Positions 26,363-35,461 of a stretch of DNA of 64,000 nucleotides are shown in pieces. Below the pieces are notes generated by a model. That model did not search any database, was not told where the DNA came from, and was given only the letters and a program-made list of their open reading frames with translations. The position numbers and the translations under genes are program-made. Source of the stretch: an uncultured Nitrososphaerota archaeon (lineage in GTDB: Archaea; Thermoproteota; Nitrososphaeria; Nitrososphaerales; CADDZS01); assembly GCA_963799845.1 (NCBI GenBank), contig CAWCYI010000004.1:1632001-1696000 (forward strand). Direction: 5' to 3'. Numbering within the stretch: the stretch's first letter is position 1; each line of letters begins with the position of its first letter.

Positions 26363-26376
26363 CCGATAGCTGAAAC
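26363..26376 (+). repeat. Left target-site duplication CCGATAGCTGAAAC (14 bp)
   Basis: Identical direct copy at 35448-35461; each copy abuts a TIR. Confidence 0.95.
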
Positions 26377-26583
26377 AAAAAAGGTGCCCCCTCCACACCG
26401 ACGGCGACACACGCCGTCGAACGCACCCTAAATTGCTCCCTAACCTGACCTAATACGCCACTAAGGAGTTCAACCCTTACCTTTTTCCTTTTTGCACGCC
26501 AGTGCAAAGTGACGGCACCTACGGTGCCAAGTGACATTCATACGCCTAAAATACCGACACTACCGGCACTTTTTGTTGAAGTG
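26377..26583 (+). repeat. Left terminal inverted repeat (207 bp)
   Basis: AAAAAAGGTGCCCCCTCCACACCG...TTTTGTTGAAGTG is the exact reverse complement of 35241-35447, compared base by base. Confidence 0.97.
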
Positions 26584-26727
26584 CTTACGGCAATTGGCGA
26601 CACACGCCAACTGTTAGGGGTTGCCTTCGGCAATCTAGAGTTTGCGAGACGTGTGAGTGTCTTAGACCAGCAATATTGTTGCGCCACATGCTCGGTCATT
26701 GGATTCTCGTAACGCGCTCCAAGGACA

Positions 26728-26928
26728 TCACCTTTGCCCAGAAAGGCTCGCAGACTCTTCTACCTGTATCAAAATTATTTTCTTGATTCGTTCCTTTGCA
26801 AGCATGTCCTCAAATTGGGAAATTATCTTACGTCCATAACCGTGTCTCCTATAAGGCTCGAATACTTCCAATGAGCGCAATTGTATTATCTGCTCATTGA
26901 GTTTGCCAAAGACGCCATTGCCTTGCAC
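26728..26928 (-). pseudogene. Degraded GNAT acetyltransferase fragment
   Basis: LRSLEVFEPYRRHGYGRKII is GNAT motif A; the upstream frames contain several stops. Confidence 0.7.
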
Positions 26929-27298
26929 CAGCTTGGTTTAATTTTTAGCGACAAGTTCGAGCAGCATTATCTTACTTTCTGCCTTAATTCCATCCTTCTA
27001 TCGATCTCGCAAACCCTGTCATATTGGATAGGATATCTTTGATGGGAATAATTTGGCCTTTCATCGAAAACTATTTTCTTAGATTTTAGTCAAATCCAAC
27101 AAATGACCCTCTAGAACACCGATTTCGGAGTCTCAGAAATTAGATAGACTTGAAAAAATGACTAATCTGTCTTAAATGATCAAAAAATACATTAGGAACA
27201 TATAGGTGCTTTACTCCTGTTCTGAAAGTAGTGCTGCATGATGAGGTATCAGTTGGCAACAGACTCGAAATTAATCGTCCGTTGCCGTCAATGAACTA

Positions 27299-28423
27299 AC
27301 CTGGCCGACATAAATTATTAGACTGAAAGGGCCACAGACCTAGACATTCTCATTTTTGGCCAACTTCCCTTCCTATCTCAGGTTGTATGTCTCGATTACA
27401 GGCACCGAAGGAGATTGTTGAAGAGGCTTATAGAGAGGAGAGGGACGCAAACGTAAGCAAGAGGATATTCCTCGTTCTGAAGGTCAAGTACGAGGGTGTC
27501 CCGGCGTCGCACGTAGCAAGGGAAGTTCACCGGCACAAATCATGGACGACACCGTGGCTTAGACGTTTCGAGAAAGATGGGCTAGAAGGACTCAAGACGA
27601 TGGAAAGGAGCGGGAGACCTCCGAAGCTCGATCACAACAAGTTCATTGCGGTGAAGAGGAAGGTCGTGAAGAACGAATGCGGCTGGACCGTGAAGGAGGT
27701 CAGGGAGATGATCCGCAAGGAAGCAGACGTGGCATACACTGAGAGACACATCTACAGGTTGATGCAGAAGTGGGGAGTGAGAGCAATTGTCCCTGACAAG
27801 AGGTTACTTCACAAGGCTTCCCTCGAAGAGAGGCTCGAATTTAAAAAAGGACCGCAAGACTCCTCAGGAATATCCCGGAAGGCTTCACCGTAGCATCCGA
27901 AGACGAATCAATCTTCGTCCAGAACATAGAAACCAAAAGGGTGTGGGCGGTCAAAGGGATTCGACCGATTCGGATTGTGTCAGGCTCGCACGGCAACACC
28001 GTGGTGTTTGGAGCGATCAGCCTGGACGGGACACAAATCTTCAGGCAGTACGAGAAATTCAATGGCGAGACATTCCTCGACTACCTGAAGAAGGTGCACA
28101 GGAAGTTTGGATCACTCTATCTCTTCCTTGACAAAGCAAGGCAACACCACAAAACCAGGATCGTAACTGATTATTTGGGTAAGAACAGGAAGACTCTCAG
28201 AGTCAGATGGATCCCGACAGCTTCGCCAGAGTTCAACATGATGGAGGAGTGTTGGCGCGAGGGTGAGAAGGATTCTCTCAAGGCTTCCAACCTTTCCGAC
28301 GTCATTGAAAGAACTGAAATCAATCCTGGCAGAATACTATCGAACGCGAAGGTTTTGCTCGCATCTTGACATGAAGAAATTCCTTCTGACCAACAGGTGT
28401 CTATGAACTTATGTCGGCCAGGT
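27299..28423 (+). mobile_element. IS630-family insertion sequence
   Basis: 25-bp imperfect IRs ACCTGGCCGACATAAATTATTAGAC / GTCTATGAACTTATGTCGGCCAGGT; TA duplication at 27297-27298 and 28424-28425. Confidence 0.95.
27387..28406 (+). CDS. IS630 transposase (HTH orfA plus DDE orfB joined by a -1 frameshift)
   Basis: WLRRFEKDGLEGL...RSGRPPKL; slippery TTTAAAAAAG at about 27840; catalytic EDES, FLDKA, PEFNMMEECW; a further indel near 28270. Confidence 0.92.
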
Positions 28424-28654
28424 TAAACAGAAACCTTGTGCACCGCCAACCAATTAATGGCGGACATTGTAATTGAACCAAAACCTCTCGGACAGATTAT
28501 CGTGTCATAGGTCATCTTTCCTATCGGAAAGATTCCGGCGGTTTCTCTTTTTGAAGAAAAGTTGTGCGTGGTTTCTACCACTAGGTTTGTGTCTTGAACC
28601 TTGATGAATGCACTCTCGTCTAAAATTAGCGGATTCATTCTACGTTATGTAGGC

Positions 28655-28678
28655 GGGGAGAATATATCTCCTTTCGGC
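28655..28678 (-). promoter_or_regulatory. Putative archaeal BRE/TATA promoter of the cas1 remnant
   Basis: Minus strand GAAAGGAGATATATT lies about 25 nt upstream of the ATG at 28638. Confidence 0.4.
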
Positions 28679-28844
28679 CTCTCTTTTTCTGCCGTGTCCG
28701 AGGGGGGTGGGTGGTGCCTAGGTGAGTTAGTTAGTGCCTAACAGCAGCTATGGCAATAGCAGAACCTGCTAAACACTAAGACAACCGCCCTAAGTGTGAC
28801 GCGTCCTCGGTCGCCAAAGCGAACCTGAAGGCATGATGTTTTTG

Positions 28845-33897: not shown

Positions 33898-34089
33898 ATA
33901 GTTCCTTCGCTTCCGAGAGCAGGAGAAACGCAGAACCACTTAACCGAATTTTTCTCGGTTTCTTTCAAGTGCTTTCTTGCATCCTTGAGGGATGGAAGTT
34001 GATTTTATGCTGAACGGTTCTTATCCCTGACCGTGGGAGAAACAAATCTTATCTGAACCCTGACTCTCCTAGTAATCCATCGATTAAAG

Positions 34090-34347
34090 ATGAAAGATGA
34101 AGAAATAGAGAAACAATTAGCCCAGATTAACAATAGGCTAGAAAAGATTGAACGGGAATATCGAAGCCTAATAGGCTCATTAAACTCTATTGAACTTGGT
34201 GGTATTACCTCTTCCAATGACGTATTACCTCTTCCAATGACAAATTTGAAAGGTATCATAGACTTGAAGACTCGCTTAGTCAGAATTGAACGCAAATTAG
34301 AACGATTTGGAGAACGAATAGAGCGATTAGAGAAAATGATGCTTTAG
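34090..34347 (+). CDS. Small coiled-coil protein
   Basis: Heptad-like INNRLEKIERE and LVRIERKLERFGERIERLEK. Confidence 0.6.
   Translation: MKDEEIEKQLAQINNRLEKIEREYRSLIGSLNSIELGGITSSNDVLPLPMTNLKGIIDLKTRLVRIERKLERFGERIERLEKMML
34202..34241 (+). repeat. Perfect 20-bp tandem duplication GTATTACCTCTTCCAATGAC x2
   Basis: 34202-34221 is identical to 34222-34241. Confidence 0.95.
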
Positions 34348-34449
34348 CCCTGACCGAAAAATTCACTAATCAAATTGAAACGGCTAGTTATTTTCCCTGA
34401 AACATTCGAGACAGTTCTCCCCGTTCCACTTGAAAGAATGAATGGATTC

Positions 34450-34767
34450 TCAGGATGTAGAGTTTTGATGAGTAATTGTTAGTGTGTAATAGGAAGTTGT
34501 GTTGGAACTAGGATATTCAAATATGATAACTGTAGTCGTAGAATCAGCATAGGTTGAGACAGATGAGAGTCCACAAACAGGCACTCCTGAGCAATCCATA
34601 GTTTGAGTTGTATAATTCGAGTTTGTAGGAAAAGACACCGTTAGTGTCTGAATTTGGGTTGTCGTTTCGGTCGTTGTCGTCGGGGGTGAAGCTGAACCCA
34701 GAGCAATTCCAATAAGAAGCATGATGACTCCCACTCCTAGTAATAACAGAAAGGTTGAACTTTTCAT
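34450..34767 (-). CDS. Small secreted Thr-rich protein
   Basis: Signal/anchor MKSSTFLLLLGVGVIMLLIGIALG, a poly-Thr tract and a CxxxxxC pair. Confidence 0.65.
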   Translation of the reverse strand: MKSSTFLLLLGVGVIMLLIGIALGSASPPTTTTETTTQIQTLTVSFPTNSNYTTQTMDCSGVPVCGLSSVSTYADSTTTVIIFEYPSSNTTSYYTLTITHQNSTS

Positions 34768-35095
34768 TTTATTCTGATTTCACTGGAAGACATCCTATAA
34801 GGTTCTAGTCCTTAGAACATAGTTCGTGAGATTCGAGCGTTCTCCAAACCTAATGGGCAGTTTCAAGCACTTCTCGTATATACATAAGTGGAGCCGTTGG
34901 GACATACATCTGCGTAGGGGCTAGTTACGCAACAGGCTCATCTCTCGGTATATGCGGAGACATTTATGGCATCTAGAAGTCAATCCGATAATAGGGCATC
35001 GCCAGCAACCCTGACAGTTATCCTCAAATAAAAGCGGAACCTACCTCCTTTTAATCCAGCGAACTCTAAAGGTCATCAAGGCAGATGAATGAGCG

Positions 35096-35239
35096 ATGAA
35101 TCAAAAGGACATTGAACGGAAAGAAGAATGAGCAGACCAAATTTTGGAATTGCTAAAAGAAGTAAAAGATTATGTTCCAACCGAGCACCACATCGAAATC
35201 GATACCTTAATGGACAAAATTCGGAACTTGCTTCTGTAA
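35096..35239 (+). pseudogene. Small helical ORF with an internal nonsense codon, ending at the right TIR
   Basis: MNQKDIERKEE*ADQILELLKEVKDYVPTEHHIEIDTLMDKIRNLLL*. Confidence 0.45.
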
Positions 35240-35240
35240 A

Positions 35241-35447
35241 CACTTCAACAAAAAGTGCCGGTAGTGTCGGTATTTTAGGCGTATGAATGTCACTTGGCAC
35301 CGTAGGTGCCGTCACTTTGCACTGGCGTGCAAAAAGGAAAAAGGTAAGGGTTGAACTCCTTAGTGGCGTATTAGGTCAGGTTAGGGAGCAATTTAGGGTG
35401 CGTTCGACGGCGTGTGTCGCCGTCGGTGTGGAGGGGGCACCTTTTTT
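35241..35447 (-). repeat. Right terminal inverted repeat (207 bp)
   Basis: Exact reverse complement of 26377-26583. Confidence 0.97.
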
Positions 35448-35461
35448 CCGATAGCTGAAAC
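35448..35461 (+). repeat. Right target-site duplication CCGATAGCTGAAAC
   Basis: Identical to 26363-26376. Confidence 0.95.

Follow-up and report, generated by a model that had tools for sequence, protein, structure and literature searches.

What left a 9.1-kb segment with matching ends in the chromosome of a soil archaeon, and can that segment still move? The segment occupies positions 26363-35461 of a 64,000-nucleotide stretch of DNA from an uncultured Nitrososphaerota archaeon (contig CAWCYI010000004.1, positions 1,632,001 to 1,696,000), and we refer to this whole stretch as the window. (Note that plain coordinates are window positions and that C4: and C6: denote contigs of the same genome, G000, which comprises 4.6 Mb in 9 contigs and is 87% complete; the element itself is C4:1658363-1667461.) An earlier note on this DNA had proposed that the segment is a casposon with a dead casposase (the Cas1-type integrase of such elements), mobilised in trans by a casposase encoded elsewhere. 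We find that the element is best explained, with a probability of roughly 70%, as a single-copy and now immobile relic of a casposase-type transposon that carries intact host-type cargo and stems from one integration.

According to this explanation, a Cas1-type integrase would have joined an element with inverted ends of ~210 bp into a 14-16-bp staggered cut in one copy of a dispersed repeat, and gap repair would then have produced the flanking duplication. The casposase would have been lost through an IS630-family insertion inside what is now its stump, an in-frame TAG at the insertion point and disappearance of the catalytic domain, where a GNAT-like open reading frame (ORF) now lies. Unable to move alone, the element would since have been replicated passively with the chromosome.

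A 9.1-kb element with perfect inverted ends and a target-site duplication

Five public sequencing runs hold parts of the stretch, and the contigs of four of them (X1, X2, X3 and X5) were compared with the window. The borders of the element are made up of terminal inverted repeats (TIRs) and a target-site duplication (TSD), as follows.

26363..26376, no strand: left TSD, CCGATAGCTGAAAC, 14 bp (up to 16 bp counting the next AA)
26377..26588, plus strand: left TIR, exact to 26583 (207 nt), mismatch at 26584
35236..35447, minus strand: right TIR; one X2 contig spans 35241-35606
35448..35461, no strand: right TSD, CCGATAGCTGAAAC

Both a repeat search and direct reading of the sequence showed that the arms at 26377-26583 and 35241-35447 are exact reverse complements over 207 nt. 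When extended to 26377-26588 and 35236-35447 they match by blastn at 99.5% over 212 nt, and because of the single mismatch at 26584 (C versus T) the exact repeat is 207 nt long. Directly abutting both arms is CCGATAGCTGAAAC, at 26363-26376 and 35448-35461. In its longest form, recovered by the repeat search, the direct repeat is CCGATAGCTGAAACAA (26363-26378 and 35448-35463), and since identity continues through the AA at the start of the arm, the duplication measures 14 bp and up to 16 bp. A given 14-mer would match by chance at a fixed place with a probability of about 4^-14. These results bear out the exact 207-bp inverted repeat and the 14-bp direct repeat described in the earlier note, with identity in the latter reaching 16 bp. 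(Note that the left arm also holds a perfect palindrome with an 8-bp stem, at 26399-26419.)

The sequences on either side of the element identify its target. Over 37 nt the left flank matches C4:983562-983598, and the sequence to the right of the element resumes in the same paralogous site at C4:983587-983611 and 983629-983670, such that both copies of the TSD align to the same 14 bases, C4:983585-983598, of the best uninterrupted paralogous repeat (C4:983562-983670). Judged by this alignment, C4:983562-983670 reads as the insertion site would have read before integration. When 24 nt of the right flank were searched with up to 4 mismatches, 11 places were found in the genome, namely the window's own and 10 others, and all 10 of the others have the left flank, the duplicated stretch once and the right flank, without interruption. 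The flanking duplication is thus a genuine TSD, and the element must accordingly have inserted into one copy of a dispersed intergenic repeat. With respect to length, the TSD of 14-16 bp, present as a single stretch in the 10 uninterrupted sites, falls where casposon duplications of ~13-15 bp are expected; duplications of 14-15 bp have been published for A. boonei, of 14 bp for M. mazei (both in PMC6977970) and of 13 bp for the N. koreensis casposase (PMC8464041). TIRs, likewise part of the casposon definition, are present (207 nt exact, 212 nt with one mismatch), and together with the integrase stump described below these borders support the casposon-type element of the earlier note.

The insertion point is 40 bp downstream of a gene for a zinc-ribbon membrane protein, which itself adjoins an ammonium transporter gene; the same-genus genome G004 retains both of these left-flank genes, with 84% amino-acid identity for the transporter and 71% for the zinc-ribbon protein. 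No tRNA genes were found in the 64-kb window. The dispersed repeat (window 26340-26376 and 35448-35560) has at least 11 copies and contains short palindromes such as TGAAACAAGCTGTTTCA; it has no Rfam match, and neither has any other part of 24000-38000 at E<=0.1.

Remains of a casposase gene split by an IS630-family insertion sequence

Close to the left arm lie two pieces of a Cas1-like gene, separated by an insertion sequence and followed by an unrelated ORF.

28426..28638, minus strand: casposase remnant, first piece, 71 codons, closed by a stop codon that the end of IS630 contributes; tblastn, hhalign, PDB
27240..27296, minus strand: casposase remnant, second piece, FIDGNGRLISSLLPTDTSS, ~codons 73-91, where similarity to Cas1 stops
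27297..28425, plus strand: IS630-family insertion sequence, 1129 bp, 27-nt inverted ends, TA on both sides, splitting the casposase gene
26728..26928, minus strand: GNAT acetyltransferase-like ORF, C-terminal 66 aa (Pfam PF00583, E 2.7e-5)

The 71-aa stump ORF, which spans 28423-28638, aligns over its full length with the N-terminus of one of the genome's own Cas1 proteins (C4:236433; tblastn E 4e-6, 35% identity) and matches four further casposases by blastp (E 5e-11 to 1e-5), the best being the N-terminus of a casposase in genome G063 (5e-11). Its closest relative is a fragment at the end of a contig of a sister species (G004:C49), which is 54% identical, is also broken, and is itself matched by the Pfam Cas1 model at 7.9e-12. 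The second piece, on the same strand and below the IS630 copy, is 87% identical over 15 aa to this same fragment. A profile made from the stump and G004:C49 matched three full-length casposases by hhalign at 98.7% (E 2.6e-16, 124 columns), and in the PDB its top match was 6opm_A (E 1.7e-7), the casposase of M. mazei (PMC6977970). The alignment of stump and G004:C49 had no match in metagenome and viral contig collections.

Only ~90 N-terminal codons of the casposase remain, their homology being firm and the catalytic domain being absent. Beyond ~codon 91 no similarity to Cas1 was found in any frame, 26300-27240 contains none to the Cas1 C-terminus, and the Pfam Cas1 model matches nowhere within the element at E<=10; it is the GNAT-like ORF that occupies the place of the missing catalytic domain. 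(Note that this ORF may have upstream parts in other frames, to ~27060 by three-frame reading; at E<=0.001 none of 300 other genomes in the order had a relative of it.) With the IS630 copy and one TA removed, the joined pieces would be VSV-TAG-FIDGNGR, with TAG where the G004 fragment has Tyr. The stump sits at one end of the element and reads towards the arm, and once the IS630 copy is taken away there is room for about one full casposase gene. The earlier note had called a Cas1-like N-terminal remnant and a dead casposase and had staked the former on profile comparison; the remnant is confirmed by tblastn, blastp, the hhalign match to casposases and 6opm_A, and a gene that is split by IS630 and has no catalytic domain supports the latter.

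The nested IS630 was likewise correctly recognised. Its transposase has HTH (helix-turn-helix; PF13592/PF13565) and DDE_3 (PF13358) domains by Pfam, and these, the short inverted ends and the TA duplication are the hallmarks of the IS630 family. Of 18 copies in the genome, the 17 others are identical to each other and one base, a single T, away from the window copy, which argues that the insertion in the casposase gene is young; TA stands on both sides in 17 of the 17 complete copies. The identity of the 17 copies points to a recent burst. The sole difference of the window copy, an extra T at 28274, may be an assembly error. As a separate observation, copies of this IS630 occur in or beside several mobile elements: the window element, C6:951052-955622, the surroundings of both other Cas1 loci, and the interior of a 584-nt inverted pair at C4:857773-865806.

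No PolB and no second copy

Casposons are defined by Cas1 and family B DNA polymerase (PolB) enclosed by TIRs and a TSD (PMC4046053, PMC9966878), and the available portion of PMC9966878 treats both proteins as present in all characterised casposons. A six-frame search of the genome with PF00136 and PF03175 at E<=1 returned 5 and 2 matches, respectively, all of them outside the element, whose ORFs match other families or none. The lack of a recognisable PolB, already pointed out in the earlier note, is thereby confirmed.

The arm was found twice in the genome, both times in the element itself, and in 0 of 40 related genomes. Exact matches to the 24-nt terminal word numbered 0 in each of the metagenome, genome and viral contig collections, a search blind to diverged ends. 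As for the other Cas1 loci in the genome, their ends are unrelated to the window arms, or they have no long ends, and they share no terminal motif with the arms. Thus neither several same-ended copies at different sites nor an autonomous partner with matching ends, as would characterise a miniature inverted-repeat transposable element (MITE) and its relatives, was found. Since the genome is 87% complete, a partner could lie in its unassembled part. With respect to the searches proposed in the earlier note, for other TIR pairs and for a complete copy with cas1 and polB, the TIR was found nowhere else in the genome, the 40 relatives or (as exact terminal word) the three collections, and a PolB-linked Cas1 does exist in the genome, without ends like those of the element. 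Mobilisation in trans of a MITE-like element gains no support from a single copy with no match in relatives or collections and no partner with matching ends; a role as gene-capture vehicle is conceivable and equally unsupported.

Short-read contigs restore the main cargo frame

The largest cargo gene is interrupted in the assembly.

28845..32582, minus strand: sensor-cyclase cargo gene, helical-repeat sensor fused to a class III adenylate/guanylate cyclase domain; assembled as three ORFs, but a single frame of 1256 aa in contigs from short reads

In the assembly the gene is divided into ORFs at 31767-32582, 30841-31731 and 28845-30827, which align in three frames to one 1095-aa protein of the related genome G009. 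Contigs of both X1 and X2 have one base fewer at 30984, an extra T after 31791 and A for G at 30982, and with these three differences the longest frame grows from 714 to 1256 aa. Because the contigs of both runs remove them, the two frameshifts are assembly errors, and since the assembly contains indel errors of this kind, its apparent pseudogenes need read support. The nonsense codons that the earlier note saw in the cargo are thus the product of assembly indels, and the contrast it drew between pristine ends and a decayed interior fails, the cargo frameshifts being errors and the IS630 insertion young. With this frame intact, the cargo would comprise a working sensor-cyclase, a hemerythrin and small membrane or coiled-coil proteins.

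Read contigs also bear on the borders. Depth in X1 is alike in the flanks (8.0-8.2) and the interior (5.3-10.1), and is ~105 over the IS630 copy. The X2 contig at 35241-35606 bridges the right arm and the right flank, and X1 contigs at both outer junctions end 30 letters into the arm, one letter below the bridging rule, as a 31-mer graph does at repeats. None of the loose ends at the arm tips in the four runs points to another insertion site. As side observations, an X1 contig has CT in place of the window's TG at 26360-26361, immediately before the duplication, which reflects either strain variation or an error of assembly, and one X2 contig leads from the right flank across the arm and on, in opposite orientation, into the left interior (joint 26584/35241, with 207 letters in common). 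The simplest account of this joint, seen at a depth of 3-6, is an artefact of the graph at the 207-bp repeat; it is possible that it signals inversion of the interior between the arms.

Other Cas1-bearing elements in the genome and its relatives

Pfam finds three Cas1 loci in the genome (C4:202678-203844, C4:236433-237419 and C6:1748317-1748640). At C4:199133-203844, a protein-primed PolB (pPolB; 711 aa, PF03175) lies 1.4 kb upstream of a Cas1 gene (388 aa, with HTH tail), an arrangement like that of family 1 casposons; a repeat search of C4:195000-206690 gave no inverted repeats above 27 nt. Two inverted IS630 copies lie just downstream of this locus. The second Cas1 gene is part of a complete 5173-bp element, C4:233599-238771, with 127-nt perfect arms and a 13-bp duplication, CCCACCATTTTTA. 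Its Cas1 (C4:236433-237419; 328 aa, Pfam E 1.7e-44) has its HTH tail in another frame, a break that may be an assembly error, and the other ORFs of the element are small (a winged HTH protein, a Zn-ribbon protein, an LSM-like protein and a Ser/Thr-rich protein), with no polymerase and no room for one. The third locus is a C-terminal Cas1 fragment that adjoins an IS630 copy at the end of a contig.

A comparable element is present in genome G063 (G063:C1, L037:4954-14966). This 10-kb Cas1 element has arms of ~130 nt, its 16-nt duplication overlaps a tRNA-Leu gene at the gene's 3' end, and it carries a C5 methylase, Vsr and ParA; no PolB was found in it by Pfam, and its Cas1 has one internal TAG. 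In a 17-row casposase tree, the genes of the G063 element and of the 5173-bp element form a clade (support 100/99) with contig-limited genes of G004 and G011, the C6 fragment and G161:C64. The PolB-linked Cas1 of the genome is the sister of that clade, and family 1 genes beside pPolB (G219, G246) fall in a separate clade. (Note that the window stump, the G004:C49 fragment and an N-terminal piece of the G063 gene were left out of this tree; a 14-row N-terminal tree was made from the first 150 residues of 11 of the 17 rows and these three pieces.) The stump was not placed in the clade of the G063 and 5173-bp elements in the 14-row tree. Full-length relatives of the stump have a C-terminal HTH tail and 6opm_A as their best match among solved structures.

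More widely, the casposase alignment found 7 loci in the genome contig collection and none in the viral contig collection, and the Pfam Cas1 model has matches in 89 of 301 genomes of the order, a count that mixes CRISPR Cas1 with casposases; one of these genomes, G270, is marked as unpublished, and none of our conclusions draws on it. For four Cas1 loci in two complete genomes (L059, L060, L063 and L064), tblastn with three pPolB queries found no pPolB; the borders of these loci were not found, and they are not counted as PolB-less elements. A 9114-nt Bathyarchaeia contig (L052) has a 45-nt inverted repeat (98%) at both ends and a 419-aa Cas1 frame, and may be a whole casposon-type element. 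The genome also has three TIR-bounded elements of 3.4-5.6 kb with 89-119-nt arms and an rve-type DDE integrase, not Cas1 (C4:1176113-1179549, C6:951052-955622 and C6:111998-117575); two of them are copies of each other, one having been struck by IS630. Cas1-bearing elements in other genomes encode homologues of some small ORFs of these rve-type elements, a pattern that suggests exchange of integrase modules.

One integration followed by decay as the favoured explanation

The earlier note read the element as one in which the casposase was lost before element and cargo were moved in trans by another casposase, as a MITE-like vehicle for gene capture. This order of events draws on the fact that arms (207/207) and duplication (14/14) are identical even though the casposase has three lesions, which is also a point against our own explanation. 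It draws as well on the two full-length casposase-type Cas1 proteins that the genome encodes (C4:202678-203844 and C4:236433-237419), on the integration of varied ends by characterised casposases in vitro (PMC8464041 and PMC6977970), and on the only close relative of the stump, G004:C49, which is also broken, as in a lineage that travels without a working casposase. We nevertheless consider mobilisation in trans improbable, since there is one copy (2 of 2 TIR matches in the genome lie in the element, with none in the 40 relatives or the three collections), the loose ends of the four runs reveal no alternative flank joined to an arm, the ends of the other Cas1 elements have no terminal motif in common with the window arms, and the supposed decay of the interior is an assembly artefact. 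Moreover, a young IS630 and one deletion suffice, such that decay after integration needs no special pleading. Decay in place following one integration explains the data equally well as mobilisation in trans or better, with the IS630 insertion being probably recent and later than the integration.

Further results weigh against one integration by a casposase followed by decay. Pfam alone misses the 71-aa stump ORF; no longer relatives of the stump were recovered at E<=0.01 from 5.8 billion proteins; and the 14-row tree puts the stump and G004:C49 on a long branch of their own. Because the short stump pairs only with this broken fragment on that branch, the original casposase family cannot be named. 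In addition, no orthologous empty site was found: synteny with G004 breaks right after the left-flank genes, with unrelated genes next, and no contig joins across the element in runs X1, X2, X3 and X5, where, with contigs only, absence proves nothing. For the empty site that the earlier note had proposed to look for in relatives or reads, the ten uninterrupted paralogous sites are the counterpart found, and not an orthologous site in G004 or the four runs. That a casposase made the insertion is what we infer from the length of the TSD and the presence of the stump. Two other accounts were considered. In one, the ends would belong to another transposon superfamily or to a two-end composite, and the Cas1 stump would be a passenger from an older casposon; Cas1 fragments are indeed common in this family of genomes, and the rve-type elements of the same genome are TIR-bounded and share small ORFs with Cas1-bearing elements. 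We give this account little credence, since the element contains no transposase but that of IS630, the stump lies at one end and points towards the arm, in a space that, IS630 aside, could take about one full casposase gene, and a 14-16-bp duplication is typical of casposases and long for DDE transposases. In the other, the inverted repeat would be an artefact of assembly, as might be suspected from the indel errors and from the X2 contig that joins 26584 to 35241 on the opposite strand through 207 shared letters. That joint is, however, what is expected of a 31-mer graph at a 207-bp repeat and low depth, X1 depth does not differ between the interior and its flanks, both outer junctions are reached by contigs of short reads (one of which bridges the right junction), and a precise 14-bp duplication with uninterrupted paralogous sites is unlike a misjoin; an artefact, which the earlier note had named among the grounds for refutation, is hardly credible.

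Relation to known casposons

Family 1 casposons of Thaumarchaeota (for example NitAR1-C1 and NitEve-C1; PMC4046053, PMC6563490) share with the window element the host order, a Cas1-type integrase gene, TIRs and a similar TSD length (13 bp in N. koreensis), and NitEve-C1 has an intergenic insertion on record, as the window element does. The window element differs from them in having neither the protein-primed PolB nor the conserved genes upstream of it, and in its stump of a casposase, 207-nt arms and host-type signalling cargo. With family 2 casposons (AciBoo-C1 and those of M. mazei; PMC6977970 and PMC4779613) it shares a TSD of 14-15 bp, the best match of the stump and its full-length relatives to 6opm_A, and the HTH tail of those relatives; unlike them it lacks both PolB and an HNH nuclease and does not adjoin a tRNA gene. 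Inactivated casposons and solo-TIRs (M. burtonii and the tandem copies of M. mazei) are likewise immobile casposon-derived DNA, but the published cases (PMC4779613) are without TIRs and TSDs or have a PolB with stop codons, whereas the window element has perfect ends and a TSD, no PolB and a truncated casposase. MITEs and other non-autonomous DNA transposons likewise combine inverted ends and a target duplication with the lack of a functional transposase; the window element differs from them as a single 9.1-kb copy that has no autonomous partner with matching ends.

The elements at C4:233599-238771 and in G063 have Cas1 without PolB, inverted repeats of 120-130 nt and duplications of 13 to 16 bp. 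They differ from the window element in that their casposases are full-length or nearly so, and their winged HTH, Zn-ribbon, ParA, C5-methylase and Vsr genes and their ends are not common to it; the G063 element lies at the 3' end of tRNA-Leu, as M. mazei casposons lie at tRNA genes. We tentatively entertain the idea, which we regard as doubtful, that soil Nitrososphaerales harbour a casposase lineage that never had PolB. Such a lineage would have ends of 120-210 nt and duplications of 13-16 bp, would use Cas1 for insertion only and would carry plasmid-like (ParA, methylase/Vsr) or host-type cargo, and the window element would be a casposase-dead member of it, perhaps moved by a resident casposase. 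The two complete PolB-less elements show that the lineage need not have had a polymerase, and a PolB-less casposase lineage would, from these sequences, be a credible new variant. No description of PolB-less or non-autonomous casposons was found in the literature searched, which comprised neither subscription journals nor supplements (those of PMC6563490 and PMC4779613 hold per-element annotations).

The CRISPR adaptation module is proposed to descend from casposons. If the idea is true, Cas1-driven mobile elements are not defined by self-synthesis, and natural Cas1 integrases uncoupled from PolB represent a state that was needed on the way to that module. A PolB-less Cas1-type element with perfect ends would show that insertion by a casposase serves elements which do not replicate their own DNA, a point that the two complete elements strengthen. 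It would also widen the range of hosts of Cas1 integrases, with the ends, the target repeat and the two resident casposases as natural substrates for tests of specificity. The meaning of the window element itself is more modest: a stranded relic that would have brought working sensor-cyclase and hemerythrin genes into the chromosome.

Remaining cargo and neighbouring features

Beyond the sensor-cyclase gene, the right half of the element holds the following features.

32887..33330, minus strand: hemerythrin-domain protein, 147 aa (PF01814, E 1.1e-9)
33372..34016, no strand: paralogous host-type segment, 79% identical to C4:2015476-2016146
34090..34347, plus strand: small coiled-coil ORF, 85 aa, no family, weak coiled-coil matches only
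34450..34767, minus strand: small ORF, 105 aa, N-terminal membrane segment and Thr-rich stretch; the genome contains four paralogous copies of its 5' part

The signalling cargo seen in the earlier note is borne out by Pfam for both the cyclase and the hemerythrin. The cyclase domain is that of a class III nucleotidyl cyclase (PF00211, Guanylate_cyc; E 2.7e-19, 69.9 bits against a cut-off of 21.9) and belongs to a large paralogous family, with 23 other loci in the genome at up to 76% amino-acid identity. In G009 the homologue of the sensor part stops at the point where the cyclase domain would start, which argues that the domains have been shuffled. The hemerythrin has one paralogue in the genome (44% identity), and its family is among the commonest in thaumarchaeal integrated elements (PMC6563490). 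Taken by its sequence, all of the cargo looks like host-type genes of the same lineage. Outside the element, at 40384-41721, a 445-aa ORF matches alanyl-tRNA synthetase at about half the usual length, and may reflect another assembly frameshift.

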